A DNA stretch of 55,455 bases from Candidatus Aerophobus profundus SCGC AAA252-L23 (GTDB lineage Bacteria > Aerophobota > Aerophobia > Aerophobales > Aerophobaceae), in NCBI GenBank assembly GCA_000402295.1, contig AQRW01000190.1, positions 1 through 55,455 of the forward strand. The letters run 5' to 3'. The notes beneath the pieces were generated by a model. The model worked only from the letters and a program-made list of their open reading frames with translations, searched no databases and was not told the DNA's origin. The position numbers and the translations under genes are program-made. Shown here in pieces: positions 1,868 through 30,173 of this stretch (position 1 is its first letter; every line of letters starts with the position of its first letter).

Positions 1868-3423
1868 ATACTCCAAGGAGGAAGCAGGTTATTAAACTTA
1901 GCAGGCATGCTGGAATATTTCAGATCTATACGCATCTTACAGAGCGTGAAAGGTTACTCCTGTTTGATCTAAGCCGGGGTTTAGATCAAAACCCAGTCGT
2001 CGTAGAGATTGGGAGTTATCTTGGTTCCAGTACCTGTTTCCTGGCAACTGGTGCCCGCTCAAATAATGGGAAGGTTTACGCTGTGGACACATGGACTAAC
2101 CTCGGTATGAGTGAGGGATCAAGAGATACTTGGGAGGAGTTTCTCTGTAACATCACACATCTTAAGAAGTGGATCGTTCCTTTGCGAGGATTGTCGGTGG
2201 AAGTAGCCCGACAATTCCGTGGCCAAATAAGTCTACTATTTGTAGATGGAGATCACTCTTATGAAGCAGTTCAAGCGGATTTGCAGACCTGGCTACCAAA
2301 GGTCAAAGATCACGGCCTTGTGGTTTTTCACGATTACAATTGGGCGGAAGGGGTACGCCAAGCGGTCAGGGAATGTGTTGTTCCTCTGCAAGTTGAGGGG
2401 GGGCATAGGCTAGACAGTATTTACTGGACACGGATTAGTCGCGACAGGAACGGGGTTGGTCGATCTGTCGTTCTCGCTTCGGTGATTGTACCTACCTATC
2501 GGCGTCCAGCGTATTTGAGGGATGTCTTAGTCTCGCTACTTAGGCAAGACTTTCCGCCCGAGCAATATGAAATTATCGTGGTAGATAATAAGCCCACCGG
2601 GGAAATTCGCGAGATTATTGAAGGACTTAAGCAAGAATGGGACCGACATGTAGGTTACGTAGAGGAGTCCAAGGTTGGTTTACACAACGCCCGTCACGCT
2701 GGAGCAAGGGCGGCACGAGGTGAGATCTTGGTCTACGTGGATGATGATGTCATCGTTCACCCGGATTGGCTTAGAGCGATATTGGAGCCCTTCCAGGAGC
2801 GGCTCGTGGCCGTAGTTGGCGGAGCAGTTTTGCCTAAGTGGGAAGCTGAACCCCCCGACTGGTTATCCCAGTCTATGCAAGGTTATTTAAGCCTACTCGA
2901 CCTGGGGAGGAACCGGCAAGAGCTAAAATACCCGGGGGGCGTTTATGGTTGCAACATGGCGATTAGGCGATCGGTGCTCTATGAAGTTGCCGGATTTAAC
3001 CCCGACGCAATGGGTGATCAGCGTTTGATTTGGTTCCGAGGGGATGGAGAAAGCGGGTTACACAAAAAGGTTTATGATGCTGGCTACAAAGTGGTTTACG
3101 AACCCCGTGCTTGGGTACACCATCGAATTCCTCCATCGCGGCTGAGGCCCGACTACTTCTGTTGGCGTGCTTATATCCAGGGGATTAGTGATTCCTACAC
3201 GTACCTGCGCGCAAATCGCTTATCCGGGGCCCAACTGCTACGACATGCTGGGCAATGCATGTTTGGGGGCGGCCGGGCCTATGCTCGTTTCATATGTGGT
3301 CCTGATTGGTCCATTCGATCGAGGATTAGAGTCTCTTATTGGTATGGACGAGCACAACATCAGCTACATGCCGTCTTAAGTCCTACGCTGCGATTCCACA
3401 TTTTGCAGGATAGCTATTTGTAA
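1864..3423 (+). CDS. fusion protein: N-terminal class I methyltransferase (Methyltransf_24-like) plus C-terminal GT2 glycosyltransferase
   Basis: N-terminal half: VVEIGSYLGSSTCFLA and LLFVDGDHSYEAVQADL...VVFHDY. C-terminal half: ASVIVPTYRRPAYL, YEIIVVDN, VYVDDDVIV (GT2 DxD region). The ATG at 1864 forms an ATGA overlap with the upstream stop. Confidence 0.75.
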   Translation: MNTPRRKQVIKLSRHAGIFQIYTHLTERERLLLFDLSRGLDQNPVVVEIGSYLGSSTCFLATGARSNNGKVYAVDTWTNLGMSEGSRDTWEEFLCNITHLKKWIVPLRGLSVEVARQFRGQISLLFVDGDHSYEAVQADLQTWLPKVKDHGLVVFHDYNWAEGVRQAVRECVVPLQVEGGHRLDSIYWTRISRDRNGVGRSVVLASVIVPTYRRPAYLRDVLVSLLRQDFPPEQYEIIVVDNKPTGEIREIIEGLKQEWDRHVGYVEESKVGLHNARHAGARAARGEILVYVDDDVIVHPDWLRAILEPFQERLVAVVGGAVLPKWEAEPPDWLSQSMQGYLSLLDLGRNRQELKYPGGVYGCNMAIRRSVLYEVAGFNPDAMGDQRLIWFRGDGESGLHKKVYDAGYKVVYEPRAWVHHRIPPSRLRPDYFCWRAYIQGISDSYTYLRANRLSGAQLLRHAGQCMFGGGRAYARFICGPDWSIRSRIRVSYWYGRAQHQLHAVLSPTLRFHILQDSYL

Positions 3424-3793
3424 TGAAAATTGTGGCTGTCTACGTTATTTTCCTTCTCTTAGGAACTGAGTTTCTATGTTGGATAGAGCCGCCGTAATAG
3501 GCTCTGGCATACAAATCAGACTGTGAAGATGAGAGGAGCAGTGAATTAGGCGAAGATTCCGTGAGTTATTTGAAACTTATGGCTAAGTGGTTACGAAGGT
3601 GTGTTGTCCCCGAGAATTGCACAAGATATTTGAACCAGACTTATGAAGATCCTAAATAAATCTGGCTTCGTTTTAGGAGGCGCTTGTTGGTAGATATTGG
3701 CTACGAGAGGACACTAGCCTGGGGCGACCAGCCTCTTGACGACGATCCTGTTAGGCTAAGGCGAGTGGGCCAATAGACCAGTGCCCGCCGAAA

Positions 3794-5001
3794 GTGGCCA
3801 TTTTGTATGCGGAACTCCGTAAGTTATTTGATCATCGGCGCATAGCTATATTTGAGCCGCACCCTGACTTAGTGAGCAATGGAACGCTAGCTTGCTTACT
3901 AGAGGCTCTACTCTGCATTGATGCTCGCGCGGATGTACCTATGCCTGACAGCGGGAACTTTCCACCAATAGATGGTATGGTGACAAGGTATCCGTTTCCC
4001 CGAGCATTCTCGATCTGGTCTGGTGGGATTCGCAGTACTTTGGGTGGCTGGCGGGACTACGCGCAGCGTGTACGGATCGACCGGATGTTCGCGGCGGGAG
4101 CCTACGACTTGATTATTGGTGTAGATAGCAAGGGTATTATTGTAGGTTATCAATATGGCCACCGCTACAAAGTGTCGTTGGTGTATCTATGTTTCGAGAT
4201 TTTCTTTGGTGATGAATTGTCGGTGAGGGCTGAAATCGAGCAAAAAGAACACGACCGTACGGCTAGTCAGGCCGGAGATCTGATAATTGTTTCAGACCGT
4301 TGGTGTGCGAGTTGTTAGCCAATGAAAATGGTCTTTGGCCGGAGAAGTTCGAATATTTGCCAGTTGCTCCTGGAGGTTCTCGTAGAATTGCAAGATCTGG
4401 TTATCTGCGCAGCAAGTTTGATCTCTCCGAGGAACAGGTTATTGTCCTGCACTCGGGAAGTTTTGGCAAATGCACGTATGTAGAGGAGCTTCTGGAGAGT
4501 GTTACCTCTTGGCCAAAGAACTTTGTTCTGGTGGTTCATACTCGGTACCGTCCCAGTGCGAATAACGAGTATATTAAAGCAGTTCGGAGACTGAACTCAC
4601 CTAATGTTTTTCTGTCAACTACACCGTTATCTGCGGCTCAATATGAGCAACTGGTGGCTTCGGCGGACATTGGTCTTGTACTCTACAAGTCGATGCTATC
4701 ATCACCCTACACACAGAAGAATATCCAAGCTATCGGTTTGTCTTCGGGAAAATTCTCTTTTTACATGGAATACGGTCTACCAACTATTTCAATCGGTCAG
4801 GAAAGTTATGCGAGGTTACTCATGAATTATGACTTTGGTGAAAACTTGAATGAGTTTGCTGAGATGCCAGTAGCCCTAAATCGTCTACGGGTGAACTTGA
4901 ATCACCACCGGGTGGAAGCACAACGGCTATTCGCTGAAAAACTTGATTTTGACCAGCATCGGCTCAGAGTCTCAGCTCGCCTATCGGAACTTCTGAAATG
5001 A
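3794..5001 (+). pseudogene. GT-B fold glycosyltransferase split into two overlapping ORFs (3794..4318 and 4300..5001) by a 1-nt frame change
   Basis: The N-terminal ORF (RIAIFEPHP..., DLIIGVDSKG, AGDLIIVSDRW) and the C-terminal ORF (VCELLANENG..., VIVLHSGSFG, SSGKFSFYMEYGLPTIS) together mirror the intact paralog at 7329..8453. Both frames are open only across 4267-4318. Confidence 0.55.
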
Positions 5002-10954: not shown

Positions 10955-11977
10955 ATGAAAGTTCTTTATTGTGCACTTTGTTACGATTACGGATGTATAG
11001 ATCGAGGTCCAAGCTTTGAGGAAGTGAACCTGGGGGATACTCTACGGCATATGAAGGAGCTGGAAGTAATTGACTTTCACTTTGATATCATTGAACATCA
11101 AGGACGGGATGTCAACGCTGAGTTCATTTCCGTACTTGAAAAAGAGCGTCCAGAAATCACCTTTGTTGTCCTGCACAAAGATGAAATCAATCCTGAGGCG
11201 TTGGACAACGTTAGAGAACTCACGACGCTGGTCTCTTGGGGTTGCGATGATCACTGGAGATTCCGAACCGGATACATGCAGCGCTATGCGCCGCATTTTG
11301 ATTACTGCATCACCACCTGCAAGGACGCGATTCCGGATTACCGGGCGGCAGGACAGCCAAACGTAATCGTGAGTCAGTGGGGATGCAACCCACAGATTTA
11401 TCACCCCAGCCCTGAAGGGTATCTGTATGATCTATCCTTTGTTGGCCAGAATTACGGGCCACGGCAGGAGGTCATCAATTATCTATGGAAGCGAGGCTTA
11501 AACGTCGTGGTCTTTGGAAGGGGGTGGCCTCATCGGCGGCGATGGCTTTGGAAACGAGGCCTCTGGTTTACTCTATTTGGTTCGTCACCGGCTGGGGGGT
11601 ACGTTCCGTACCAGAAGGTTGTGGAGATCTACGGGCGTAGCAAGATCAACTTGTGCCTGAATAATAATGTGACAGGGATAGATAACATCAAGGGGAGAAA
11701 CTTCGAGGTGCCGGCTTGCCGTGGCTTCTTAATCACCGGTCCAGCACAGGGTTTAGGAGAGTACTTCGAGATTGGCAAAGAGATCGTTGTCTACCATAAT
11801 CCAGATGATCTGGCAGACAAAATTGTCTACTATCTCGAGCACAGTGAGGACCGTGAAACCATAGCTGAAGCCGGTTACAAACGAGTTATTCGAGATCACA
11901 CCTATGGGGGGCGTTTCCGTGAGATTTTCTCCAATATCAATCTGGAAGTCAAGGGGGCGGCGGTGTGGCGAGGGTAA
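10955..11977 (+). CDS. CgeB-like glycosyltransferase (Glyco_trans_1_2-type C-terminal domain)
   Basis: KINLCLNN...IKGRNFEVPACRGFLITG...EYFEIGKEIVVYHNPDDLADKIVYYLEHSEDRETIAEAGYKRV matches the CgeB-family pattern. Confidence 0.7.
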   Translation: MKVLYCALCYDYGCIDRGPSFEEVNLGDTLRHMKELEVIDFHFDIIEHQGRDVNAEFISVLEKERPEITFVVLHKDEINPEALDNVRELTTLVSWGCDDHWRFRTGYMQRYAPHFDYCITTCKDAIPDYRAAGQPNVIVSQWGCNPQIYHPSPEGYLYDLSFVGQNYGPRQEVINYLWKRGLNVVVFGRGWPHRRRWLWKRGLWFTLFGSSPAGGYVPYQKVVEIYGRSKINLCLNNNVTGIDNIKGRNFEVPACRGFLITGPAQGLGEYFEIGKEIVVYHNPDDLADKIVYYLEHSEDRETIAEAGYKRVIRDHTYGGRFREIFSNINLEVKGAAVWRG

Positions 11978-12963
11978 GTGTCCTCATGTCCGTGTACAAC
12001 GGTGAAACCTACCTGCAAGAAGCAATCAATTCCATCTTGCACCAACAGTTCACTGACTTCGAGTTTATTATCATCAATGATGGTTCTACGGATCGCAGTG
12101 CCGGCATAATACAATCGTATCATGATGCTCGAATTCGTTATTTTGAAAACGGTCAAAACATTGGCTTGATTGATTCGCTTAACCATGGACTGTCACTTGC
12201 CCGTAGCCCATATATTGCGCGCATGGATGCCGATGACGTCAGTCTGCCGGAACGCCTAGCTCGGCAGGTGGATTTCCTAAATGTGCATCCCGAAATTGGT
12301 GTCGTGGGCTCTGCGGTGCAGGTGATTGATGGCGCTGGAAACCCGTCCCATGTATGGCGATTCCCCACCGAACACGGGGTTATTGCATGGCGTCTGTTCT
12401 TCGCCGACCCTATTGCGCATCCAACGGTGATGATAAGGCGAGAAGTAGTGAGTCAGGTCGGCGGGTACAGTGCTGATATGGTACACGCGGAAGATTACGA
12501 TCTCTGGCGGCGCCTGAGCCACACGACATGTTTGTCTAATCTACCAGACGTGTTGTTGCGTCTTAGAAGGCACGAATCCTGTGTCACACGAGCGCACCAT
12601 ACCCAGCAGTGGAACAATAGTATCAGAATAAGCCACCTCATGATATCTGAAGTTTTGGGTGAGGATGTCCCGATGCGGCTGGTTCAACATCTGTGGGGCG
12701 AGCAATTCCAGAGTCTCAACGACGTGCGTCAGGTTGCGAACCTGATCTATAGACTGTATCAAGCCAGTGTTATTGACAATGCACTGTCAGCGGCTGAGAA
12801 ACGAGTAATCCGCAGGGACGCATGCAGGCGCTTGTTCGATCTGGGGCGTCAGCGAACAGGTGATGGGTACGCGTGGGAACTAATTGGCTTAGTTCCTCGG
12901 ATCGACCCTTTGGTTATCGGCAGAGTAGCAGCAGGTAGACTTCGCCGCATAGTCCGCGGGTAG
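11965..12963 (+). CDS. GT2 family glycosyltransferase
   Basis: VSVLMSVYNGETYLQEAINSIL, FEFIIINDGSTD, ARMDADDVSLPERL. Confidence 0.85.
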   Translation: MARVSVLMSVYNGETYLQEAINSILHQQFTDFEFIIINDGSTDRSAGIIQSYHDARIRYFENGQNIGLIDSLNHGLSLARSPYIARMDADDVSLPERLARQVDFLNVHPEIGVVGSAVQVIDGAGNPSHVWRFPTEHGVIAWRLFFADPIAHPTVMIRREVVSQVGGYSADMVHAEDYDLWRRLSHTTCLSNLPDVLLRLRRHESCVTRAHHTQQWNNSIRISHLMISEVLGEDVPMRLVQHLWGEQFQSLNDVRQVANLIYRLYQASVIDNALSAAEKRVIRRDACRRLFDLGRQRTGDGYAWELIGLVPRIDPLVIGRVAAGRLRRIVRG

Positions 12964-13160: not shown

Positions 13161-14330
13161 ATGAGAAGAGTGCTTGTCCTATCCGGATACTTTCCTGACA
13201 CCACACGCCCCAGCCGAGGAATCTTCGTATTAGAGCAAGCGGAAAAACTGGCGAAGATTGCACATGTCACAGTCATTTCGCCGGTTGCTGTTCCGTTGCC
13301 CAGGAAGAAGTTCAGGCGCATTCGAGAAACCATTTCCCGTATTCCACACCATAGTAGTCTGAACGGGGTGAATTGCTTTAGACCTCGTTACTTTGACTTT
13401 CCCAGGTTGGGGAACTACCTGAATGCTTATGCGATATTCCTATCTGTGTGGCGGTGTATTTCCAGGAACAACATAGAAATAGACCTGATCCACGCTCATT
13501 TCGCACACGAAATGGGATATGTAGGGGTTCTGTTATCAAAGTGGCTGAGCAAACCGTTTATATTGACCGTGCATGGGTCCGATATCAACATTCGACCACA
13601 GTTTGTTCCAGATAGGAAGAGAATATCTGTTGCCCTAAGGAACTCAAATCGTGTGATCGCCGTCAGCAACGATTTGAAGGCAAAAGTCTTGACCATGGGG
13701 GTCCAGCCGGATAAGGTGGTGGTGATTGGTAATGGAGTGGATACCATGCAATTTAAGCCAATGGATAAATTTATGGCCAGAAGTCGCTTGGGATTTCCAG
13801 CAAGGGAGCCAGTTGTTCTTTCTGTGGCGAATCTAAATGAAGTGAAAGGAATTCATTACCTGATCAAAGCCTTCTCGCAATTGTGTGGTAGAAAGCAATG
13901 GTTACTTCTTGCGATTGTGGGAGCTGGCTCCATGAGACCCGAGCTTGAGGCGGAAGTCAAAAGTTTGGGGTTAGCTAATAGTACCTGTTTTGTTGGGGAG
14001 AGACCACATGACGAGATTCCGCTGTGGATGAATGCGTGTGACGTGTTTGTTCTCCCCAGTCTGAATGAGGGATTCGGCATTGTTTTGCTGGAGGCGTTGG
14101 CCTGTGGCAGACCAGTAGTTGCTACTAGAGTTGGGGGAATCCCAGAGCTCATCAAAGATGGTTCTGTGGGACTACTAGTGGAACCAGCAAATTCGAGGGC
14201 TTTAGCAGAAGCAATGCGCAACGCGATTACAATGAAATGGGATACAGAAAAGATGATTCGGTATGCTACAGATTACTCCTGGAGCAAAGCCGCCCAAAAG
14301 ATTTATGAGGAATATGAAAGCGTACTTTGA
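13161..14330 (+). CDS. GT4 family glycosyltransferase
   Basis: MRRVLVLSGYFP start at 13161. HAHFAHEMGY, and the C-terminal EX7E region PSLNEGFGIVLLEALACGRPVVATRVGGIPELI. Confidence 0.85.
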   Translation: MRRVLVLSGYFPDTTRPSRGIFVLEQAEKLAKIAHVTVISPVAVPLPRKKFRRIRETISRIPHHSSLNGVNCFRPRYFDFPRLGNYLNAYAIFLSVWRCISRNNIEIDLIHAHFAHEMGYVGVLLSKWLSKPFILTVHGSDINIRPQFVPDRKRISVALRNSNRVIAVSNDLKAKVLTMGVQPDKVVVIGNGVDTMQFKPMDKFMARSRLGFPAREPVVLSVANLNEVKGIHYLIKAFSQLCGRKQWLLLAIVGAGSMRPELEAEVKSLGLANSTCFVGERPHDEIPLWMNACDVFVLPSLNEGFGIVLLEALACGRPVVATRVGGIPELIKDGSVGLLVEPANSRALAEAMRNAITMKWDTEKMIRYATDYSWSKAAQKIYEEYESVL

Positions 14331-14596
14331 AAGACTCAGGAACGATAACCGGTTAATTGGTGTAGCCTGGGTGTTATTGGCTGTTTTCTTGTCCTTGTTG
14401 TCCATCTACGCTGTGGTGGACAATAAGCTACTTTTGGCCATGGTATTTGCAGTCCCCATTTCTCTCATTTTCTTTCTTCGCCCTCTGTGGGGATTGTACA
14501 TACTTGTTGCTTTGATTCCCTTTCAGCTTTTCCCGATGGCTTTCTTTGGTAGCTCGTACACCTTTTCGGTGTGTCAGGTGCTGGTTAAGCTTCTAT
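14175..14596. repeat. left copy of a 422-bp direct repeat (GT4 3' end plus wzy-like 5' end)
   Basis: Aligns without gaps to 15781..16202, offset exactly 1606 bp. About 28 mismatches by hand count, roughly 93 percent identity. Confidence 0.9.
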
Positions 14597-14703
14597 CACA
14601 AAATACGCTGAGGACCACGGGCGTAAAGCCTGTGGGTATCTACAGTTACGGGCAAATTGCATGCCGCGTGATGTATTTTTGGGTGCGATGGATCAATAAA
14701 TGA
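14314..14703 (+). pseudogene. truncated 5' copy of the Wzy/O-antigen-ligase-family gene
   Basis: MKAYFERLRNDNRLIG...VCQVLVKLL matches the first 94 codons of 15920..17578. It then diverges into unrelated sequence and stops at 14703. Confidence 0.8.
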
Positions 14704-14793
14704 CGCCGGCCTGTTGGGGGGCGGCGAAATAGTGTGCGACTAATTAGGGTTTACGTCACATAAGTAGAGGGAAACAAGGAAGGAGGTTGGTCT

Positions 14794-15690
14794 ATGAGCG
14801 CACTAAGCTATCCGAAATATGATGCAGCGAGCTCCAGTTGGGGTACCTCGACCCATGAATCGATGGGGACAGGCATGCATCGGCTTTTAGGCAGCGCGCT
14901 TCACGTTAGGCCCGTGGGAAGCTGGGTGCGTACCAGGGTCAAGGAGCTCCGCGCCTACCAAGCACTGCTAAGTTCACGGGAAATCCGAGATCAGACAAAG
15001 TTTGTCATATTTGCTCAGGGTAGGACTGGAAGTGACTTACTGCGTAGTCTAATTCAGTGCCATCCATCCATTTGTTGCGAGGAAGAAATCTTGGCCCGGG
15101 AGATTCTCTTACCAGCATCCTTTGTGCTTGGACGGGCTAAGCTATGCAGGAAGAGTGTTTACGGTTTTAAACTGAAGATCTATCAACTTACGAGAGGGCA
15201 GAAGTTGCACTACCCAGGCAGGTTCGTGAGCAATTTGGTGGGTGAGGGTTGGCGAATCGTGTACTTGAGTCGGTGGAATATGCTGCGGCAGGTGCTTTCG
15301 GGTATTGTTGCGGAGCACAGGAATGCTTATCAGTACCGATTGGCAGATGGTCCGCTCGTACTTGAACCCATCCGCGTGAACTGCGCTGGCGTAATTGCGA
15401 AGATGAGGGAACGAAAAAGCTATCTTAGGCTTGAGAGGAGAATACTGAAGGATATACCTTATTTCCCAATCGTGTATGAAAATGATCTCCTAAGGCCAGA
15501 GTGTCAGCAGAATACTCTGAACAAGCTGTTCGGCTATCTGGGAGTGCGGCCGGTGCCTGTGCACTCAGATTTGCTCAAGATCACACCTATGAGACTATCG
15601 GATTTCGTTGATAACTGGCGAGAGCTTGTACGGACTGTTAGGGGCACCGAGTTCGAAGAGTTTGTGAAGGGTGTGCTAGCAAAACGCTGA
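14794..15690 (+). CDS. sulfotransferase-like protein (Stf0-like P-loop pattern)
   Basis: A 5'-PSB-like motif FAQGRTGSDLL and a 3'-PB-like motif YLSRWNMLRQVLSGIVA. It is the only gene in the 1184-bp unique segment between the 422-bp repeats. Confidence 0.55.
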   Translation: MSALSYPKYDAASSSWGTSTHESMGTGMHRLLGSALHVRPVGSWVRTRVKELRAYQALLSSREIRDQTKFVIFAQGRTGSDLLRSLIQCHPSICCEEEILAREILLPASFVLGRAKLCRKSVYGFKLKIYQLTRGQKLHYPGRFVSNLVGEGWRIVYLSRWNMLRQVLSGIVAEHRNAYQYRLADGPLVLEPIRVNCAGVIAKMRERKSYLRLERRILKDIPYFPIVYENDLLRPECQQNTLNKLFGYLGVRPVPVHSDLLKITPMRLSDFVDNWRELVRTVRGTEFEEFVKGVLAKR

Positions 15691-15780
15691 AATTATGAGT
15701 CAAGTCTACCACTTTCGCTGGAAAAATTAAGCGTTGGTCTTGACATCAGTCATATTTCAAAGTGGTTTCTCAGCAGCCTC

Positions 15781-15936
15781 CTAGTGGAACCAGCAAATTC
15801 GAGGGCTTTAGCAGAAGCAATCCGCAAGGCAATTACAATGAAATGGGATACAGAAAAGATGATTCGATATGCTACAGATTACTCCTGGGGGAAAGCCGCC
15901 CAAAAGATTTATGAGGAATATGAAAGCTTACTTTGA
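15781..15936 (+). pseudogene. orphan 3' fragment of the GT4 gene
   Basis: Encodes LVEPANSRALAEAIRKAITMKWDTEKMIRYATDYSWGKAAQKIYEEYESLL*, equal to the last 51 codons of 13161..14330. No upstream coding continuation. Confidence 0.85.
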
Positions 15937-16202
15937 AGGACTCAGGAACGACAACCGGTTAATTGGTCTGGCCTGGGTGTCATTGGCTGTTTTCTTGTCC
16001 TTGCTGTCCATCTACGCTGTGGTGGACAATAAGCTACTTTTGGTCATGGTATTTGGAGTCCCCATTTCTCTCATCTTCTTTTTTCGCCCTCTATGGGGAT
16101 TGTACATACTCGTTGCTCTGATTCCCTTTCAACTTTTCCCAATGGCCTTCTTCGGTAGCCCATACACTTTCTCGGTGTGTCAGGTGCTGGTTAAGCTTCT
16201 AT
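15781..16202. repeat. right copy of the 422-bp direct repeat
   Basis: See 14175..14596. Confidence 0.9.
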
Positions 16203-17784: not shown

Positions 17785-19002
17785 ATGCTGGAGGGTGAGA
17801 CTATTCTGTGTTTATCTCCGAGTTCCTGGTTTTCACTGTGGCGCAACCGCCAACAAATCATGTCAAGATTAGCGAGACGGAATGTGGTTTTATTTGTTGA
17901 ACCACAACGTAATCCGCAGTATAGTTTTCTTGTTAACCTCAAGTGCAAGGCCTGCAATTTCCGCCGTGTTCATGTGAAACAGGTGGATCGGCGGCTCTAT
18001 GTGGTCGATGTTCCTCCTGCGCTGCCTTTCAGCGCAACGTTATCGGGGTGGATCGGTCCGTGGTTGCCTAAGCAGGTCAGTCGAGTGAATAATGCCGTAT
18101 TGTTGAGGTCAGTATCCCAGGCCATCAGGTATGTCGGTTGCGATAAGCCTATTCTTTGGCTTTATCTACCTTATCACGGTAGACTAGTCGGACATTTTGG
18201 TGAGAAGCTCGTGTGTTACCATATTTATGATGAACTTGCGGATTATCCTTCTAATAGAATTATCAAAACCTTCTTTGAGCATTGTGACCGAGAGCTTTGC
18301 AAAAAGGTCGATGTGATCTTTGCATCGTCGCTGGCTCAGACCTTGCGGCGCAGACTATTCAATCCACATACCTATTTTGTACCGAACGCTGCTGATTTCA
18401 CTCACTTTCAAAAAGCGCTCGATCCAAACTTGGAATTGCCCCTCAATGTCCGCGACATCCCGCAGCCCAGGATTGTCTACTGTGGATTTCTGGGTTTTCA
18501 AATAGATGTCGGCTTGCTTCTGAAAATCGCAACTGCCCAACGTGACTGGAGACTACTTCTCGTCGGCCCGGATCGACTAAAACACGACAAGGTCTACCAG
18601 ACATTGAGGCAATGCAAGAATGTGTATTTCTTAGGGGAGAAACCATTGCAAGAACTACCGGCTTATCTCAGGGCGTGCGATGTGGCGATTATGCCGTACG
18701 ACCTGAGTACACATGTGCTAACAAGTTATCCACTGAAGCTCCATGAGTACCTTGCAGCTGGCAAGCCTATTGTTTCGGTAAATATGCCGGAACTAGAGGC
18801 ATTTAAAGACGTGATCTACATCTCAAAAAGTGGGGGAGATTTCCTATCCAATATTGAATTGGCTTTAGAGGAGGACACACCCGAAAAAGTCCAAAAACGG
18901 GTTGAGGTGGCTCGAAGAAATACTTGGGATGACAGAGTGGAAGAAATGTCAAGGTTCATTATAAAAAGGCTTTCAGAAAAATCCTGTGGAATAGCTATCT
19001 GA
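17785..19002 (+). CDS. GT-B glycosyltransferase (GT1/GT4-like, TuaH-like)
   Basis: C-terminal YLRACDVAIMPYDLSTHVLTSYPLKLHEYLAAGKPIVS. 405 aa, a tandem paralog of the next gene. Confidence 0.7.
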   Translation: MLEGETILCLSPSSWFSLWRNRQQIMSRLARRNVVLFVEPQRNPQYSFLVNLKCKACNFRRVHVKQVDRRLYVVDVPPALPFSATLSGWIGPWLPKQVSRVNNAVLLRSVSQAIRYVGCDKPILWLYLPYHGRLVGHFGEKLVCYHIYDELADYPSNRIIKTFFEHCDRELCKKVDVIFASSLAQTLRRRLFNPHTYFVPNAADFTHFQKALDPNLELPLNVRDIPQPRIVYCGFLGFQIDVGLLLKIATAQRDWRLLLVGPDRLKHDKVYQTLRQCKNVYFLGEKPLQELPAYLRACDVAIMPYDLSTHVLTSYPLKLHEYLAAGKPIVSVNMPELEAFKDVIYISKSGGDFLSNIELALEEDTPEKVQKRVEVARRNTWDDRVEEMSRFIIKRLSEKSCGIAI

Positions 19003-19007
19003 AATCT

Positions 19008-20225
19008 ATGGGTGGAGAAACTTTTGATCTTATTGTCTACTTGGATGCTGACTGGGATACGCACGGGTCTCGTAATCGTCAGCATTTTCTGATTCGGGAA
19101 ATAGCTCATCAGGTTGAAGGTAAGGCAAAAGTCCTGGCTTTAGAAAGACCGATCTGTCCCATAACCGGTCCTTTCTTGCACCGCAGAAAATTCTTGAGTT
19201 GGGTGCCTTACCAAAGTGGGCTACGACAAGAAGGTACCGACTTATTTATCTATACGCCTTTCGTTCTATTGCATAATGTGCTGGCCAGCTTCGTTCCTGG
19301 ACTGACTGGCATAAACCGGAAACTTCTCAAATGGCAGATCGATTCCTTATTGCGGCGATTGGAATTCAAGCGAGATAATCTGATTGCCTGGATACACCAC
19401 CCCTACCAGTTGGAGGACGTCGGGTTGGTAAGAGAAAAGTTCTTGGTTTACGATTGCTACGATGATTACTTTAGTAATGTGGCTGGTCGACGGCTCATGG
19501 ACATGCGGAGGCGAGAAAAAGCCATCCTTGAATGTGCTAATATGGTGTTCGTGGCCTCACAAGAACTCCTCAAGAGGATGAGTGCCATGACAAAACAGAT
19601 ATTCTTATTGCCCAACGGAGCAGACGCCCGACTTTTTCATGAAGGTACGGACCCGGAAATCGCAGCTCCGGGTGAGATAGCCTCGTTGCCCCATCCAATC
19701 ATTGGTTTTGTAGGAAGAATAGCTCCGTGGCTAGATTTCAAGCTTCTTGCTGGGCTGGTAAAGCTTCATTCTGAATGGAGCTTCGTTTTCATAGGGAAAT
19801 GTGATACCGATAGAAAACTATCTAAGTGTCCTGAATACCAATTTTTGAAGAAGACGACTAATGTATATTTCTTGGGACCAAAACCACATAGGGAACTACG
19901 GGCCTATTTAAAGAAATTTGATGTGGGCATTATTCCATACCTTTTAGATGGTCAGGTTCCCTCCTCCTCGCCGCTCAAGTTATATGAGTACATGGCTGCA
20001 GGAAAACCTGTCGTGTCGGTAGATATACCTCATGTTTCCCGCTTCCAACCTCTTGTTCGTATTGCGAGTGGTGTTAGTGAGTGGGAGAAAGCCATACAGG
20101 ATGCCTTGTCTGATAACGATAATCTTGCTGAACAAAGACTCCAGGTAGCACGTGAAAATTCCTGGTCTGTTCGGGCCAAAGATGTGTTATGCATTCTTAA
20201 AGGTTTTTTGGGCGGTAACCCTTAA
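19008..20225 (+). CDS. GT-B glycosyltransferase (tandem paralog of 17785..19002)
   Basis: YLKKFDVGIIPYLLDGQVPSSSPLKLYEYMAAGKPVVS. Same length (405 aa) and collinear motifs. Confidence 0.7.
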   Translation: MGGETFDLIVYLDADWDTHGSRNRQHFLIREIAHQVEGKAKVLALERPICPITGPFLHRRKFLSWVPYQSGLRQEGTDLFIYTPFVLLHNVLASFVPGLTGINRKLLKWQIDSLLRRLEFKRDNLIAWIHHPYQLEDVGLVREKFLVYDCYDDYFSNVAGRRLMDMRRREKAILECANMVFVASQELLKRMSAMTKQIFLLPNGADARLFHEGTDPEIAAPGEIASLPHPIIGFVGRIAPWLDFKLLAGLVKLHSEWSFVFIGKCDTDRKLSKCPEYQFLKKTTNVYFLGPKPHRELRAYLKKFDVGIIPYLLDGQVPSSSPLKLYEYMAAGKPVVSVDIPHVSRFQPLVRIASGVSEWEKAIQDALSDNDNLAEQRLQVARENSWSVRAKDVLCILKGFLGGNP

Positions 20226-20230
20226 GATCT

Positions 20231-21217
20231 ATGAAGATTCTTTTTGTTCACCAGGGATTAATTTCATTTATTGCGAAAGACCTTGGGACACTACGCTTAA
20301 AACATGACGTAAAAGAGATTTGTTTTAGAGGCATTAAGGATATTCCTGCTGTCTGGGAAGGCACCGCTTGGTGCGATGTCACGTTTTCGTGGTTTGGTAA
20401 GTTGCATGCTTTCTTTACTGTCCTTTTCTCGAAGTTGCTGAGTAAAAAAACTATTGTCGTGGCTGGTGGTGATGACGTGGCTTACGATCCGGAAATAAAC
20501 TATGGTCTGTACTGCTCATGGTGGAAGAAGTGGTGTTCTTTATTCGTTTTTCGGTATGCTGATCTTATCCTGAATGTTTCGGAATTCAATCGAGGGGAAA
20601 CAATTAGGAATGCAGGGGTTGATTCGAATAAGGTGAAATTGCTCTATCACGGGTTTGATGATCAAAAGTGGCGAAAGATGGATGGGATATCGAAAGAATG
20701 CCTGGTTCTCACGGTAGGAAGGGTTACGGACGAGACCTTTCGTAAGAAAGGTCTCGAATTGTTCGTCCGCAGCGCGGCGTACTTGCCAGATGTACCATAT
20801 ATCTTAGTTGGCCCCTGGGAAGATAGGGCAATTGATAGACTGAAAGTCATTACTCCGTCCAATGTCGTCTTCGCCGGGGGTAGGTATGGTGAAAACTTGG
20901 TACAGATGTACAGCCGAGCGAAGGTGTATGTGCAGGTGTCGCGTCACGAAAGTTTCGGCTGTTCTCTGGCTGAAGCCATGCTTTGTGAGTGCATTCCGGT
21001 GGTATCCAGCCGAGCAGCAATTCCAGAAGTAGTAGGAGATTGTGGGTTTTATGTCGATACGTTGGAACCAGAGGCGATAAGTCAAAAAATCAAGGAGGCT
21101 CTGGATGCGCCAATTGAACTGGGCAAGAAGGCTCGGGAGAGAATCATCACTCATTTTCCCTTGGAGAGACGGAGAAAGGCGTTACTCGAGTTACTAGGCC
21201 TGATCGCGAAATCATGA
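20231..21217 (+). CDS. GT4 family glycosyltransferase
   Basis: VSRHESFGCSLAEAMLCECIPVVSSRAAIPEVVGDCGFYV (EX7E region). Confidence 0.8.
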   Translation: MKILFVHQGLISFIAKDLGTLRLKHDVKEICFRGIKDIPAVWEGTAWCDVTFSWFGKLHAFFTVLFSKLLSKKTIVVAGGDDVAYDPEINYGLYCSWWKKWCSLFVFRYADLILNVSEFNRGETIRNAGVDSNKVKLLYHGFDDQKWRKMDGISKECLVLTVGRVTDETFRKKGLELFVRSAAYLPDVPYILVGPWEDRAIDRLKVITPSNVVFAGGRYGENLVQMYSRAKVYVQVSRHESFGCSLAEAMLCECIPVVSSRAAIPEVVGDCGFYVDTLEPEAISQKIKEALDAPIELGKKARERIITHFPLERRRKALLELLGLIAKS

Positions 21218-24468: not shown

Positions 24469-25344
24469 ATACTCAAAATTAAGCTGAAAACCTCACTTAT
24501 CAATATCCTCACCATTGATGTCGAGGATTGGTATGCGTCCAGTTTAGCTCTTCTTAACGGGCCAAACTCGGTATACGGGCAGCGGCCTGCTGGGAGTGTT
24601 GTAGGAAACGCGAGAAGAGTCCTCAAAATTCTGCAAGAATATAGTTGTGAGGCAACTTTTTTTGTGCTGGCGACGGTAGCAGAGCACTATCCGGACTTGG
24701 TTAGAGAAATTCATGATGCCGGTCACGAGATTGCTACCCACGGCTACGCTCATCGGCTGGTCTACCGAATGAGACCAGAAGAATTTGAGGAAGATCTGGT
24801 TAAGTCCCTGAAATTGATTGAGAATGTTATTGGGGAAAAGGTAGTTGGGCATCGGGCCGGATACTTCTCGATCACGAAACAGTCACTCTGGGCCCTGGAT
24901 ATTCTGGCCAAGCATGGCATCAAGTACGACTCGAGTATTTTTCCCATTCGCCGGAGACTTTATGGGATTCCTGACTTTCCCCGCTTTGTCTCTCAAGTAA
25001 GAAGTAAAGGGAGATACGGACTTCGGGAGGTTCCGCCCTCCACGGTTCGGATATGGGGTCAGAATGTTCCTATCGCCGGTGGCGGCTATCTTCGCGTTCT
25101 TCCGTATTGGGTAATCAAACAGGGAATCAGGAGGGTTAATGCCCAGGGACACCCCGCGGTGATCTACCTGCACCCTTATGAGCTTGATCCCCAGGATATT
25201 AAAGTGCCAGGCGTTTCGCTCGGGTGGGGAACACGGTTTACCCAGCTCAGTCAACGATTCAATCGCTCGACGTTTGAAGGGAAACTAAGAAAGCTTCTCC
25301 GGGACTTTAAATTTGGCTCGGTACGAGAGGTGCTGGATTTGTAG
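24469..25344 (+). CDS. polysaccharide deacetylase (DUF3473 / XrtA-associated type); start codon uncertain
   Basis: The conserved N-terminus NILTIDVEDWY (from 24505), ATFFVLATVAEHYP and GHEIATHGYAH lies upstream of the first canonical start (GTG 24664). The frame is open from 24418 with only ATA 24469, ATT 24478 and CTG 24484 as possible starts. Confidence 0.7.
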   Translation: MLKIKLKTSLINILTIDVEDWYASSLALLNGPNSVYGQRPAGSVVGNARRVLKILQEYSCEATFFVLATVAEHYPDLVREIHDAGHEIATHGYAHRLVYRMRPEEFEEDLVKSLKLIENVIGEKVVGHRAGYFSITKQSLWALDILAKHGIKYDSSIFPIRRRLYGIPDFPRFVSQVRSKGRYGLREVPPSTVRIWGQNVPIAGGGYLRVLPYWVIKQGIRRVNAQGHPAVIYLHPYELDPQDIKVPGVSLGWGTRFTQLSQRFNRSTFEGKLRKLLRDFKFGSVREVLDL

Positions 25345-25451
25345 TTAGTGAGTCATAAGGAAGAAAGGATATTTGAAGCACTAATATGTAAGCGACCGCC
25401 GTCGGAGAGTTTTGAGGTCCTTGCGTCATTGAGTCAAAAGCAATAAAAACC

Positions 25452-25566: not shown

Positions 25567-26481
25567 ATGAAGCTTAGACAAATAACATGTGACATCTGTG
25601 GAAGTGGTAATGTGGAGGTTGTGGGTAAACCGCCAGTCGAAGAAAGACTCAGAACGAGATTTCCCCAATTGAGTGAAACCTCGGTGGTCCGGTGTACCAA
25701 CTGTTGCTTCTACTTTGTCAGCCCAACGCCTTTCTTTAGCAAAAGCGAATTAAAGTTCATTTACGACCAGACCTATTTCAAAGCATCGGTCATGACTGAC
25801 TGGTGGAGAAAAAGGAGAGTCAGGGACAGAATTTGTCGGTTAGACGCTATCGAGCAAATGAGCTCACCGCAAGTGAGAAAGCTTTTGGATGTTGGTTGTG
25901 GGGAGGGCTGGGTTTTGTGGGAAGGCCAGAGGCGAGGATGGGAGGTGTGGGGTGTAGATGTATCAAATAATCTGGCGGATCCTCTAAAAAGTAAGTTTGG
26001 TGAAAGACTGGTCATTGGAAGGCTGCCAGAAGTGGGGTTTGCATCTGAATCCTTCGACGCGATCTATATGGATTCAGTTTTGGAACATGTTCCGTCCCCT
26101 ACCTCCATGATGAGGGAGTGTTACCGGATACTCCGTAGGGGGGGGTGCCTCTATGTTGGAGTTCCTAACGAAGACAGCCTGATGAACGAGGTGAAAAGGT
26201 TACTTTGCAGTGCAAAAGGATATGGGGCGTCGTCACGGTTGAATCCATTCAGGAACCCTTACCACATTGCTGGATTCAATAGAGGTTGCTTTACGAAAAT
26301 GGCTGAAAAACTGGGCTTCCGGGTTGAGAAAATTAGAATTTTCGGCGGACATTATGAGTTTTTGAAGTATAGGTCAGGTTGGACAGTTTTTGGCAAGTTG
26401 TTGTTTCATTCTACCGTACACGCGGTGGGCCTGTTGTTTGGGAAAGGGTTTTACATTCAGGCCTGGCTGATAAAGGAATGA
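25567..26481 (+). CDS. class I SAM methyltransferase with N-terminal zinc ribbon
   Basis: CDICGSG...CTNCCFYF, LLDVGCGEGWVLW, FDAIYMDSVLEHVPSP, GGCLYVGVPNE. Confidence 0.8.
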   Translation: MKLRQITCDICGSGNVEVVGKPPVEERLRTRFPQLSETSVVRCTNCCFYFVSPTPFFSKSELKFIYDQTYFKASVMTDWWRKRRVRDRICRLDAIEQMSSPQVRKLLDVGCGEGWVLWEGQRRGWEVWGVDVSNNLADPLKSKFGERLVIGRLPEVGFASESFDAIYMDSVLEHVPSPTSMMRECYRILRRGGCLYVGVPNEDSLMNEVKRLLCSAKGYGASSRLNPFRNPYHIAGFNRGCFTKMAEKLGFRVEKIRIFGGHYEFLKYRSGWTVFGKLLFHSTVHAVGLLFGKGFYIQAWLIKE

Positions 26482-26667
26482 TCTAACGTTAACAAATATG
26501 GTTGTGAGACCTACTCTCACAGTCTCTCTCCGCGATGGTTCCGATAAGAATTCTTATGTTAACCAAGCATACCTCTAATCCGCTCCAGATAAGACTTTCA
26601 TTTTGACTGTTTTTGTACATCTACAAATCCACATGGGAAGAAGTTTTATGATATGTCTGAAAAAGCG

Positions 26668-26793
26668 ATGAGTAGGCTATACAAGAATCCCCCGTTAATA
26701 GAGGCTGTATTCGAAATACGGTTTCCTGCTGAGTTGTTCATTGAGTGCCAAATAGATAGGTTCTACAAAAGAATTAGAAACGACTATCCTTAG
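26668..26793 (+). pseudogene. TIGR04255-family N-terminal fragment with a premature TAG
   Basis: MSRLYKNPPLIEAVFEIRFPAELFIECQIDRFYKRIRNDYP*. The paralogous copy at 29939.. has CAG where this copy has TAG (26791-26793). Confidence 0.65.
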
Positions 26794-26822
26794 ATATTTG
26801 TCCCCATAATTGTCGGGAAACC

Positions 26823-27047
26823 TCACAGTTCCTGCCATTTTTCCCGTGAGATGCCTATTTCCTTGATGATCTGTCGGACGAGACCTATGCTTATGTCTTT
26901 GCCTTTGTGGATGGGAAAAGGGATGATTCTTTTTTCCTCGAGATGAACCATTCTCACATGTTTTCCACCCGGTATGGGACCGACAAACCCAAGTTTTCTC
27001 AGCTTTCGGATTACCTCCGCGGGTTTAAGGGGTCGAAGTGGAGACAT
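26823..27047 (-). CDS. hicA: HicA-family toxin
   Basis: LKPAEVIRKLRKLGFVGPIPGGKHVRM...IPFPIHKGKDISIGLVRQIIKEIGISREKW. The ATG at 27047 is preceded by GAGGAAAG. Overlaps the hicB end. Confidence 0.75.
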   Translation of the reverse strand: MSPLRPLKPAEVIRKLRKLGFVGPIPGGKHVRMVHLEEKRIIPFPIHKGKDISIGLVRQIIKEIGISREKWQEL

Positions 27048-27294
27048 CTCTTTCCTCAATCTCTATTCCCGGGAGATGAGGTATCTCGAATCCCAATTGC
27101 AAAGCTAAGGTGACGTTACCTTCTATGGCATCCCTCAAATTCTCTCTTGCCTCTTCAAAGCAGTCGCCTTGGGCAAAGAATCCTGATGCCTCCGGTACTC
27201 TGGCAATCACTATTCCGTTTTCGTCTCGAAAATACTCAGCTTTTCTGAGGCATTCGTCAAGATAACGGGAGAGTGAGAAGATTCTTGCTTTCAT
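27025..27294 (-). CDS. hicB: HicB-like antitoxin
   Basis: MKARIFSL...VARVPEASGFFAQGDCFEEARENLRDAIEG pattern. Located directly upstream of hicA. Confidence 0.6.
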   Translation of the reverse strand: MKARIFSLSRYLDECLRKAEYFRDENGIVIARVPEASGFFAQGDCFEEARENLRDAIEGNVTLALQLGFEIPHLPGIEIEERDVSTSTP

Positions 27295-27330
27295 GATTTC
27301 ACCTGTGAGTCCTATCTTCACCCATAAGGA

Positions 27331-27358
27331 AGTATAATAACCGGTGCGGAGATGTCAA
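27331..27358 (-). promoter_or_regulatory. sigma70-like promoter TTGACA-16-TATACT for the hicBA operon
   Basis: Minus strand: TTGACA (27358-27353), a 16-nt spacer, TATACT (27336-27331), about 37 nt upstream of the ATG at 27294. Confidence 0.55.
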
Positions 27359-27370
27359 GAATTTAACATG

Positions 27371-27437
27371 TGTCAAGGGACACCATCTCTTACGAGGTTA
27401 GGGGACACCAACCTTTACGAATTATTATTCAAAAGAA
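27371..27437. repeat. dispersed about 67-bp repeat (TGTCAAGNGACACCATCTCTTACGAGGTT..GGACACCAAC.TTTACGAATTATTA.TCAAAAGAA)
   Basis: Other copies at 40302..40368 (near-identical), 43122..43213 (expanded, three sub-repeats) and 31088..31124 (partial). It contains two 17-nt direct sub-repeats: GACACCATCTCTTACGA and GACACCAACCTTTACGA. Confidence 0.8.
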
Positions 27438-27467
27438 GATCTTTGCTGTGGGATTTTATGGGGCTTT

Positions 27468-27498
27468 CTCCGATAAATCGGACCACTACAATATGGGG
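27468..27498. repeat. REP-like hairpin, family 3 (TCCGATAAATCGGACCNCTACAATATGGGG)
   Basis: Copies at 43292..43320 and 52510..52540. The stem is TCCGAT/ATCGGA. Confidence 0.75.
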
Positions 27499-27536
27499 GT
27501 TTTTCGCCAGCGTTCTATCTTGGTCCGTTAAGAGTG

Positions 27537-27872
27537 TTAAAGAAATTCGATGTGATTTTCCATTTCTTGCTGACTAAGAAGCTGGGCAACGAGTTCAATC
27601 ATACGAATACACTGTCCTACAGACAAACGCAAGGGATGAGCGTATAAGATCCCTCTATGTTTCCTTCCCTCTTGATTCCAGCGATGAGCTATTTTGAGCA
27701 AATCTGTATCATGAGTAACAATTACTGCTCCCAATCTGGAAGCACGCTGTAGATGATATTCATCGCTTTTCCCTAAATCTTCCCTATCTCGTGCTGATAC
27801 AACCTGCAGATTCCTTCTTCTAAGACCCTCCACAATGCCCGCCTCAATATTTTCATCGCAATAGATTTTCAT
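27537..27872 (-). CDS. DUF5615-family PIN-like (Mut7-C-like) putative toxin
   Basis: MKIYCDENIEAGIVEGLRRRNLQVVSA...VIVTHDTDLL. Overlaps the stop of the upstream DUF433 gene. Confidence 0.65.
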   Translation of the reverse strand: MKIYCDENIEAGIVEGLRRRNLQVVSARDREDLGKSDEYHLQRASRLGAVIVTHDTDLLKIAHRWNQEGRKHRGILYAHPLRLSVGQCIRMIELVAQLLSQQEMENHIEFL

Positions 27873-28189
27873 TCCTCAGACTTGGTCTTTAATTTAGATG
27901 GGTAAAGATTTCTCAGTTCTTTCAGGAAGATCTCCTCTTTTTTGTATGCGTTATCCAGCTCCAATTTGTTTTCATAGTAGTAGGAAAGAGCATCATGAAT
28001 TTGAGCCAGAGTTAAGTGAGGGAACTGTTGTATCATCTCATCCGGTGTCATCCCCCCGAATTCGTATCGAATAGCAATATCCATAACCTTGGTGCGTGTT
28101 CCCGCAATTACGGGAGTTTCCTTCCTAATTCCGGGATCAACGGTCACATAGGGATGTTTCAATTCACTTGGCCTGACATTGGTAGACAT
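27869..28189 (-). CDS. DUF433 domain protein (putative antitoxin partner)
   Basis: HPYVTVDPGIRKETPVIAGTRTKVMDIAIRYEFGGMTPDEMIQQFPHLTLAQIHDALSYYYEN is the classic DUF433 pattern. Confidence 0.75.
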   Translation of the reverse strand: MSTNVRPSELKHPYVTVDPGIRKETPVIAGTRTKVMDIAIRYEFGGMTPDEMIQQFPHLTLAQIHDALSYYYENKLELDNAYKKEEIFLKELRNLYPSKLKTKSEE

Positions 28190-28224
28190 CTCTGCCTCCT
28201 TACTCTTTATTGACAGTGTTCAGA

Positions 28225-28414
28225 CATTGTAATAATCGAAGATTTCAAGACCTTGTGTAGTGAGTTTGATAACTCTATTTGCCTTATCTTAACTTTCTTT
28301 GATGAAGGGTAGATGTTTCTCTTTCGTTGTCTCAACTATCGTTCTGGGTTTTTGCGTTGCTTGGTATTGTATACTTTCTTTGCCAGATGTCCAATCTTGC
28401 CAAAAAGGGACGGT
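28225..28414. repeat. 190-bp cassette shared with 40901..41090; carries a minus-strand TTGGAC-17-TACAAT promoter
   Basis: Gap-free alignment by eye to 40901..41090. The -35 is at 28394-28389 and the -10 at 28371-28366 (minus strand). In the second copy they are at 41070-41065 and 41047-41042. Confidence 0.8.
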
Positions 28415-28536
28415 GGAAATGGTAAACTGAATTCCTGGTACTATGGTAAACAGAAATCCTATATGGATGGTAAACAGAAATCCCATTTCGGAAGAGCTCC
28501 TGTATAGTTTTAGAAAACTCTACAGGAGAGGAAATG
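28414..28536 (+). mobile_element. solo left end of the IS21-family element (no transposase)
   Basis: Matches 35638..35808 from the terminal TGGAAATGGTAAACTG through the istA ATG, but with 3 rather than 5 of the 24-bp phased GGTAAACAGAAATCC repeats (at 28421, 28445, 28469). Similarity ends right after the ATG. Confidence 0.8.
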
Positions 28537-28552
28537 GACAAGGAGGAGTGAA

Positions 28553-28765
28553 ATGAAATATAGAGTAGTCATTGAACAAGACGAAGACGGTGTATTTGTT
28601 GCTGAGGTTCCATCTTTGCCTGGGTGCATCTCACAAGGGACTACGAGAGCGGAGGCACTCAAGAATATTCAAGAAGCAATAGAAGCGTATGTGGAAAGCT
28701 TGAAAGCACACGATGAGCCTGTTCCTCCATCAATAAGCGAGGAAGTAGTCGAGGTGGCGGGGTGA
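28553..28765 (+). CDS. hicB: HicB-family antitoxin (UPF0150-type)
   Basis: MKYRVVIEQDEDGVFVAEVPSLPGCISQGTTRAEALKNIQEAIEAYVESL. Strong SD (AAGGAGGAG). Confidence 0.8.
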   Translation: MKYRVVIEQDEDGVFVAEVPSLPGCISQGTTRAEALKNIQEAIEAYVESLKAHDEPVPPSISEEVVEVAG

Positions 28766-28935: not shown

Positions 28936-29087
28936 TAATTCTCTTCACCAATGAACTGGCCAAGAGGCTTTTCACCATCGTTGTAGCGCGGCGCCGAAGA
29001 ATTTGCGATTTTGCAGAGGTGGGAGAGGTTGTCGGAGACTTCCTCCGACCAGTTCTCAAGGCTGTGTCTTCGGGTATGTTGACCAAC

Positions 29088-30106: not shown

Positions 30107-30173
30107 AGCTATGACTAGCATTCTACCGCGAAGTACTGTGTAGAAATATTCAAATAAGGCCAACGTCGAACAC

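Follow-up and report, generated by a model that had tools for sequence, protein, structure and literature searches.

The DNA analyzed here, referred to as the window, is the whole deposited contig AQRW01000190.1 (55,455 nucleotides (nt); assembly GCA_000402295.1) of Candidatus Aerophobus profundus SCGC AAA252-L23. In a glycan cluster of this contig, a gene for a sulfotransferase-like protein lies between a gene for a glycosyltransferase of the GT4 type and a gene for a Wzy-type polymerase/ligase-family protein (hereafter, wzy), and the DNA that carries it is flanked by two diverged copies of the GT4-wzy junction. The reading that we favor, with a confidence somewhat above even, is that this arrangement is a fixed scar of homeologous recombination in a large glycan operon, left by DNA from a diverged relative; the route of entry is left open.

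A repeat scan and a base-by-base comparison revealed that positions 14175–14596 recur at 15781–16202 as a direct repeat of 422 nt. The two copies align without gaps at an offset of exactly 1606 nt, with 28 mismatches (93.4% identity); if the count starts at 14172, there are 29 mismatches in 425 nt. The ends of the repeat are sharp, as identity is at background level directly beyond either of them, and a repeat of this length cannot be a product of chance. Each copy comprises the final 156 nt of GT4 and the initial 283 nt of wzy. To the left of the insert, GT4 is whole and is followed by a wzy fragment; to the right, a GT4 stub precedes a whole wzy. Neither of these dead copies harbors an indel or a stop codon. 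The same coordinates, offset, approximate mismatch count and gene content had been given in a preliminary description made from the sequence alone, and the self-comparison of the window that it had proposed recovered the repeat. Its statement that the 1184 nt of unique DNA between the copies carry a sulfotransferase-like open reading frame (ORF) only is also borne out by the ORF list, in which 14794–15690 stands alone.

The longest stretch identical in both copies spans 41 nt, and the final 31 nt of the repeat are identical as well. A gene-conversion patch inside the repeat was considered and rejected: according to our own estimate, a longest identical run of 41 nt is in line with chance for 28 differences in 422 nt.

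The structure can be compared with Logan contigs, assembled independently from runs SRR3952011-14, which over more than 30 kb differ from the window only in the length of one homopolymer (G8/G9). Two contigs of the left flank end at 14204, 30 nt into the repeat; three contigs that contain the insert start at 14567 or 14591 and end at 15810 or 15889; and two contigs of the right flank begin at 16173, 30 nt before the repeat ends. All these ends fall where the copies share at least 30 nt, which are the break points expected in a k=31 graph, and the junction sequence is thus present on both sides of the insert in independent data. One insert contig (L001) extends into the right copy for 109 nt, and each of the five right-copy variants in that stretch is present in it. 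Across the final 31 identical nt, only the deposited contig connects the left-copy variants to the insert.

An assembly artefact might take either of two forms: a loop walked once in the graph, in which case the chromosome would in truth have a single junction and be accompanied by a circle of its own or by a second strain, or else a chimera of two strains. In favor of an artefact, the window probably derives from an enrichment or metagenome-type sample. Since the final 31 nt of the repeat are identical, the k=31 Logan graph would indeed be the same for the integrated structure and for a chromosome accompanied by a 1.6-kb circle. Against an artefact, however, independent contigs flank the insert with junction sequence on both sides and join it to the five right-copy variants; identical stretches do not exceed 41 nt, which allows ordinary reads to phase the copies; strain variation is absent from the independent contigs over more than 30 kb, which argues against a two-strain chimera; and a 1.6-kb circle without a replication gene could presumably not persist across four runs. 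We consider an artefact of either form very improbable.

Substitutions in the two junction copies

Had the repeat originated in situ, its left wzy fragment would have been dead from the start. The ratio of non-synonymous to synonymous substitution rates (dN/dS) should then lie roughly midway from the value for the live gene to 1. Neutral evolution of the dead copies would give a dN/dS of about 0.5 or more, with derived changes concentrated in the dead copy. The part of the repeat that belongs to wzy only (264 nt) contains 14 synonymous and 7 non-synonymous differences, which yield a dS of 0.25, a dN of 0.036 and a dN/dS of 0.14; 12 of these 21 differences are found at third codon positions. 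In simulations conditioned on 21 differences, with a transition bias of 2–8, as few as 7 non-synonymous changes were rarely obtained when one copy was neutral throughout (P = 0.003–0.05), while the observed value was typical when both copies were under purifying selection (P = 0.2–0.8). Neutral evolution of the dead copies, the expectation for duplication in situ, was not observed in this small sample.

Polarization with outgroup proteins assigned 3–4 derived residues to the intact wzy and 2 to the fragment, a weak pointer in the same direction. The GT4 stub retains a widely conserved, and thus ancestral, Ile residue where the intact GT4 has Met.

With moderate confidence, we propose from these substitution patterns that the two copies acquired most of their 7% divergence as parts of working genes in separate lineages. 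Divergence of this kind would mean that the structure was made, or later remade, by recombination with the DNA of a relative. The view of the preliminary description that the copies are homeologous rather than locally duplicated is thus favored by the low dN/dS and by the simulations; the pattern of an old tandem duplication in situ, which it had named as a reason to doubt integration, fits poorly.

Origin of the insertion

An uninterrupted counterpart of the junction was found in a distant relative, a 4.2-kb metagenome contig (L011) that has the gene order GT2-GT4-wzy and encodes proteins with 55% (GT2), 59% (GT4) and 45% (wzy) identity to those of the window. In this contig GT4 and wzy overlap by 11 nt, nothing lies between them, and a sulfotransferase gene is absent. 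Because the junction is uninterrupted and the genes overlap, the uninterrupted state can be considered the older one, in agreement with the earlier proposal that the sulfotransferase gene was inserted into the GT4/wzy junction. L011 is the only empty junction seen in the collections searched. Neither of the two observations that the preliminary description had named as contrary to its model, long reads with a single copy of the junction or relatives that carry the sulfotransferase gene between GT4 and wzy without a flanking duplication, was encountered.

The history that we envisage starts from the gene order GT2-GT4-wzy, with GT4 and wzy overlapping by 17 nt and the ribosome-binding site of wzy inside GT4. 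In separate lineages, purifying selection would have acted on orthologous versions of the junction while these came to differ by about 7%, and at least one of the two present copies, probably together with the sulfotransferase segment, would have come from a related strain via homologous recombination in the junction. Two routes can be conceived. One is a Campbell-type single crossover with a circle; the other is the entry of linear DNA that recombines homologously at one end and is joined illegitimately at the other, with an overlap of 422 nt relative to the allelic position. The product would be the same in both cases: a 1.2-kb segment with a carbohydrate-type sulfotransferase gene between GT4 and wzy, and the 422-nt junction on both sides of it. 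The selective filter, at least, is evident. Given the overlap of GT4 and wzy and their shared translation signals, an insertion can keep an intact GT4, an intact wzy and the translation signals of wzy only if it supplies a second junction copy, and it is this duplication that lets the event survive. Diverged repeats are far less prone to recombinational loss than identical ones.

No mobile element was recognized at the insert. The insert harbors no terminal inverted repeats, no transposase or recombinase gene, no attC-like site and no match to Rfam, and the repeat scan found no inverted repeats of 30 nt or more and shorter ones at chance level only. Searches for a phage or viral link of the sulfotransferase gave no match, and plasmid records gave two matches only, at 36% identity. 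The features of a transposon, an insertion sequence (IS), an integron cassette or a phage-borne cargo are therefore lacking, and the earlier suggestion that no dedicated mobile element was involved stands.

A second diverged partial duplication is found about 10 kb downstream of the sulfotransferase insert, where the glycan cluster ends. It comprises the 3′ end of a polysaccharide deacetylase gene (24990–25387), which recurs 4.1 kb downstream at 29088–29486 with 84% identity, and a further segment (26536–26824) recurs at 29673–30095 with 89–92% identity. The first copy contains a methyltransferase gene (25567–26481) and toxin-antitoxin genes, which the second copy lacks. Over 117 codons, the deacetylase stub has retained both the reading frame and the stop codon, and comparison with the intact gene gives a dN/dS of 0.21 and a dS of 0.46. 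The locus would thus carry at least two remnants of diverged orthologues, which supports repeated recombination with relatives as a general process, and the different dS values (0.25 and 0.46) suggest that the two duplications were separate events.

The strict form of the Campbell model, a special case of the reading that we favor, requires a non-replicating circle of 1606 nt, made of a junction copy from a relative diverged by about 7% and the 1184-nt segment, and one crossover in the resident junction. The topology of an insertion-duplication is exact: the insert plus one repeat amounts to 1606 nt, the repeats are direct, and both neighbor genes are restored. The repeats are homeologous, and identical stretches of up to 41 nt would be usable for strand exchange. 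In addition, recombination between the repeats of the present structure could set such a circle free, and a donor built in the same way might thus be its source. However, unless such a donor existed, the circle itself would need two earlier illegitimate joins, and its origin is thus unexplained; resort to a circle merely shifts the problem of the illegitimate joins to the donor. Neither a circle nor a replicon function nor an uptake system is evident. Furthermore, when 44 other loci with a sulfotransferase homologue, from GTDB species representatives, were each compared with themselves over 10 kb around the homologue, no comparable flanking repeats were detected, only two incidental and more distant repeat matches. 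The homology in the second duplication of the window is discontinuous and is not explained by a simple circle; import of linear DNA anchored at one end fits it better. As a specific route, a 1606-nt circle seems to us unlikely. The part of the preliminary description that survives is therefore the topology (direct repeats of 422 nt, a unit of 1606 nt), while the Campbell route in particular is not established, as linear import gives the same product.

A different kind of explanation is duplicative insertion in situ, by a single replication or repair event with a template switch at nt 283 of wzy, copying of the sulfotransferase segment from elsewhere and a return 422 nt behind, or by tandem duplication with an insertion at the joint. 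In either case the copies would have been identical at first and the 7% divergence would have accumulated afterwards. An event of this sort has the merit of producing both illegitimate junctions at once with no need for a donor relative or a circle, and it is in keeping with a sulfotransferase family native to this type of locus and with an insert whose composition is not foreign. The substitutions speak against it: a dN/dS of 0.14 between the intact and the dead wzy is unlikely under neutrality, the dead copies show no excess of derived changes, and at a dS of 0.25 both remnants are still free of indels and stop codons. Identical repeats of 422 nt only 1.2 kb apart are, moreover, readily lost by recombination. 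Altogether, we regard an origin in situ as distinctly unlikely. A derivation from ancestral paralogous GT4-wzy modules cut down by deletions was rejected as unparsimonious, since two precise deletions would be needed and homology ends sharply on both sides. A more novel reading, to which we give little credence, is that repeat, insert and repeat form a self-addressed excisable cassette, which recombination between the junction copies would release as a 1.6-kb circle with the sulfotransferase gene and one junction copy, with restoration of an intact GT4-wzy junction, and would re-enter relatives that share the junction by a single crossover; the 7% divergence would then be the trace of a hop between strains. 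If this were true, sulfation could be switched off and passed between strains without any mobile-element gene. The probability that is left goes to more complex histories.

Import from a relative also has its difficulties, and several observations weigh against it. Two illegitimate joins (14596|14597 and 15780|15781) are needed in every route, and their origin is unexplained. The G+C content of the insert (0.50) falls within the range of the cluster (0.37–0.52) and thus provides no independent sign of foreign origin. Protein searches, exact cluster look-ups and scans of genome and metagenome contigs found their closest matches at 50% identity for the sulfotransferase, 58% for wzy and 59% for GT4; the collections searched contained no closer relative of any of the three, and accordingly neither a donor nor a close empty site. 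The selection test comprises 21 substitutions and is only moderately significant, the outgroups used for polarization have 45–59% identity, and the GT4 part of the repeat, with 6 differences and a dN/dS of 0.35, offers too few changes to be informative. Lastly, a low dN/dS would also be expected after local duplication if the wzy fragment itself were under selection.

The sulfotransferase gene and the surrounding locus

A protein search retrieved 34 homologues of the sulfotransferase at 30–50% identity, several of which are named ‘LPS sulfotransferase NodH’ or carry a precomputed PF13469 domain. In their alignment, G76, R77, (T78), G79 and S80, which form a GRTGS loop, as well as R160 and S169 are invariant or nearly so. 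We take the loop to be the element that binds the 5′-phosphosulfate group, and R160 and S169 to bind the 3′-phosphate, as expected of sulfotransferases that depend on 3′-phosphoadenosine 5′-phosphosulfate (PAPS). The match to PF13469 (15.8 bits, E 0.017) covers the P-loop region only and lies below the curated cut-off of 27 bits, and a search of NCBIfam gave no match. An AlphaFold2 model of the protein has a confidence score (pLDDT) of 87.9. Its best fold match in the PDB, of moderate similarity, is the trehalose sulfotransferase Stf0 (1tex; E 1e-5, template modeling (TM) score 0.47–0.57), and SULT7A1, the bacterial sulfotransferase 3rnl, TPST and heparan-sulfate 3-O-sulfotransferases (HS 3-OST) are also among the top matches. 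With the support of the predicted fold, the designation ‘sulfotransferase-like’ appears justified for the 298-aa protein, and a carbohydrate substrate is likely, judging from the context.

Because the gene has the orientation of the operon and a ribosome-binding site of its own, it would be co-transcribed with its neighbors, and its product may add a PAPS-dependent sulfation step to the glycan; the gene thus predicts a sulfated surface or matrix glycan in this organism. A scan for promoters and terminators found none inside the insert. The insert has no similarity elsewhere in the window or in the loci fetched for comparison: for its flanks (14597–14793 and 15691–15780), blastn and tblastx against the window and all fetched loci gave chance matches only. 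There is thus no support for the possibility that the sulfotransferase gene was formerly located downstream of wzy, or directly upstream of the glycosyltransferase block, in this lineage.

Homologues of the sulfotransferase gene are found in related loci at more than one position. In three loci (L058, L059 and L062), a homologue directly follows an unrelated Wzy_C gene. In a Scalindua metagenome-assembled genome (L012) and in two metagenome contigs (L060 and L061), homologues lie directly upstream of orthologues of the three-glycosyltransferase block that follows wzy in the window, with tandem arrays in the latter two; across the loci compared, the genes directly upstream of such orthologues are either sulfotransferase homologues or wzy. 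The best named matches, from Brocadiaceae and Scalindua, have 41–46% protein identity and share gene order with the window; taken by themselves, they would point to a probable kinship with anammox planctomycetes. Since homologues recur in this manner, the sulfotransferase gene appears to be a familiar module of this family of loci and not an exotic cargo. The word ‘cargo’ of the preliminary description was, in this respect, too strong.

The arrays of L060 (273–3652) and L061 (3–2291) contain three to four tandem sulfotransferase genes, three of which are homologous to that of the window, and stand directly upstream of orthologues of the window genes GT_19008, GT_20231 and GT2b. They suggest that relatives may produce multiply sulfated glycans. 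Differences of other kinds were seen among Brocadiaceae loci. Genes for a 121-aa ‘23S rRNA intervening sequence protein’ (PF05635) number two or three in the B188-type genomes L007 and L008, respectively, around positions 2700–4200, in loci that otherwise match. An RfbT-like methyltransferase encoded upstream of wzy has 274, 318 or 245 aa across L007–L010.

The exact GT4 protein is already on record in the protein collection, and its gene stops at 14330. Translation of wzy starts at 14314 on the left and at 15920 on the right, with an overlap of 17 nt between GT4 and wzy; the GAGGA ribosome-binding site of wzy lies inside the 3′ end of GT4, and thus inside the GT4 stub on the right. The intact Wzy-type protein scores above the gathering threshold of PF04932 (Wzy_C), is a full-length multi-pass membrane protein and is co-linear with relatives of 551–589 aa, the full-length relatives having 44–58% identity to it; the assignment leaves polymerase and ligase undistinguished. 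The truncated wzy ORF matches no Pfam family and is not called as a protein in the protein collection. As it keeps the ribosome-binding site of wzy, it is probably translated into a small membrane peptide. The coordinates of all these features are collected in Table 1.

Table 1. Features of the window at and around the sulfotransferase insert.
Feature	Position	Strand	Basis
GT2 glycosyltransferase gene, upstream context	11965..12963	+	PF00535, E 6e-34; 55% identity to first gene of L011
Intact GT4 glycosyltransferase gene, 389 aa	13161..14330	+	PF00534 and PF13439; full-length match, 59% identity to P0056/L011
Left repeat copy (3′ end of GT4, 17-nt overlap, 5′ end of wzy)	14175..14596	+	Gapless alignment at offset 1606
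Truncated wzy ORF (94 wzy codons and 35 codons read from the insert)	14314..14703	+	ORF list; alignment to Wzy relatives
Unique insert, 1184 nt	14597..15780	+	Single ORF
Sulfotransferase-like gene, 298 aa, own GGAGG ribosome-binding site, operon orientation	14794..15690	+	
Right repeat copy	15781..16202	+	Alignment; Logan contig L001 joins the insert to five right-copy variants
GT4 3′ stub (final 52 codons and stop; frame intact, 5′ part absent)	15781..15936	+	
Intact Wzy-type polymerase/ligase-family gene, 552 aa	15920..17578	+	PF04932, 36.2 bits (cut-off 31.7)
Conserved block of three glycosyltransferase genes	17785..21217	+	tblastn against L007, L012, L060 and L061

Other observations concern the DNA downstream. 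In the methyltransferase gene of the second duplication (25567–26481), a poly-G tract at 26138–26145 has eight residues in the window and nine in the independent contig L004 (SRR3952011), which carries the gene in two pieces of 200 and 99 aa. The tract could reflect a sequencing error or be phase-variable. Between two parts of the polysaccharide region, positions 26500–43700 are rich in repeats and poor in genes, with many families of repeats of 40–190 nt (84–100% identity), HicB-like and DUF433/DUF5615 toxin-antitoxin genes and a fragment of a DDE transposase gene (32080–32526). DUF433, DUF5615 and PIN genes also follow the related cluster of Brocadiaceae B188 (L007). The genes at 35806–37365, which encodes an integrase-core domain, and at 37362–38105 are possibly an IS21-like pair, to judge from their sizes and arrangement. 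Just upstream, at 35638–35782, lies a tandem repeat of 24 nt (with units like TGGTAAACAGAAATCCCATGGTAG), a partial copy of which is found with the same downstream sequence at 28414–28536. An intergenic repeat of about 200 nt with a GC-rich hairpin (GCAGCTTTTAAGCTGCG...GCAGGCTAAAGCCTGC) occurs at 47321–47518 and again, 7.8 kb apart and with 92–98% identity, at 55149–55382; one copy precedes permease genes and the other follows a pyruvate formate-lyase-like gene. Finally, the tandem genes at 47504–48520 and 48641–49603 share at least 300 nt at 84% identity, and the former encodes a BPD_transp_2 ABC permease domain.

Resemblance to known recombination events

Campbell-type (insertion-duplication) integration is known from integrative plasmids and from insertion-duplication mutagenesis in the laboratory. 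The locus described here resembles it in that the insert lies between direct repeats of a homology segment, and in that a segment spanning a gene junction restores both neighbor genes. It differs in the lack of an evident vector, replicon or circle, in the 7% divergence of its repeats and in that the source of a circle is unexplained.

Addition of DNA without mobile-element genes has precedents in other bacteria. Homology-facilitated illegitimate recombination is an established way to achieve it (PMC3240628), and transformation-triggered merodiploidy, by alternative pairing and interchromatid integration, gives rise to duplications without mobile-element functions (PMC3784515). Both systems share with the linear route considered above the use of linear DNA of which one end finds its anchor by homology and the other is joined illegitimately or to a non-allelic site. 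Unlike the present case, however, they have been demonstrated experimentally, and the merodiploid duplications span 100–900 kb and are bordered by IS elements. A further parallel concerns the unit of recombination. In a tandem paralog cluster compared across the genomes of one bacterial species (PMC2568036), the evolutionary units run from the 3′ end of an ORF through the intergenic region into the 5′ end of the ORF that follows. In that case, too, the recombining unit is a gene junction and not a gene; however, tandem paralogues swap segments there, whereas a single gene has been inserted here.

The locus of Ca. A. profundus is a concrete case in which a modifying enzyme has come to lie between two glycan-operon genes that overlap and are translationally linked, with damage to neither, since the insertion came with a junction copy of its own. 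In addition, it indicates that the substitution pattern of leftover fragments can tell import from a relative apart from local duplication. The significance of the case is modest unless excision and reintegration are active.

The closest resemblance in kind is found in the galactose-initiated O-antigen clusters of Salmonella, in which groups B1, D1, D2 and D3 contain gene remnants and one partial wzy duplication at recombination junctions (PMC3715488). As in the window, polysaccharide loci have been rebuilt there by recombination between diverged versions, non-functional wzy remnants persist beside intact genes, and a new combination of glycan-modifying functions has resulted. The Salmonella junctions, however, often carry remnants of IS elements or H-repeats, and the gene remnants are decayed, whereas the insert described here has no trace of a mobile element, and its two remnants are free of indels and together enclose one gene in a precise direct repeat of 422 nt. 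Rather than a new class of mechanism, the locus is thus an unusually tidy and well-preserved example of an event of known kind, in a lineage that has been little studied.

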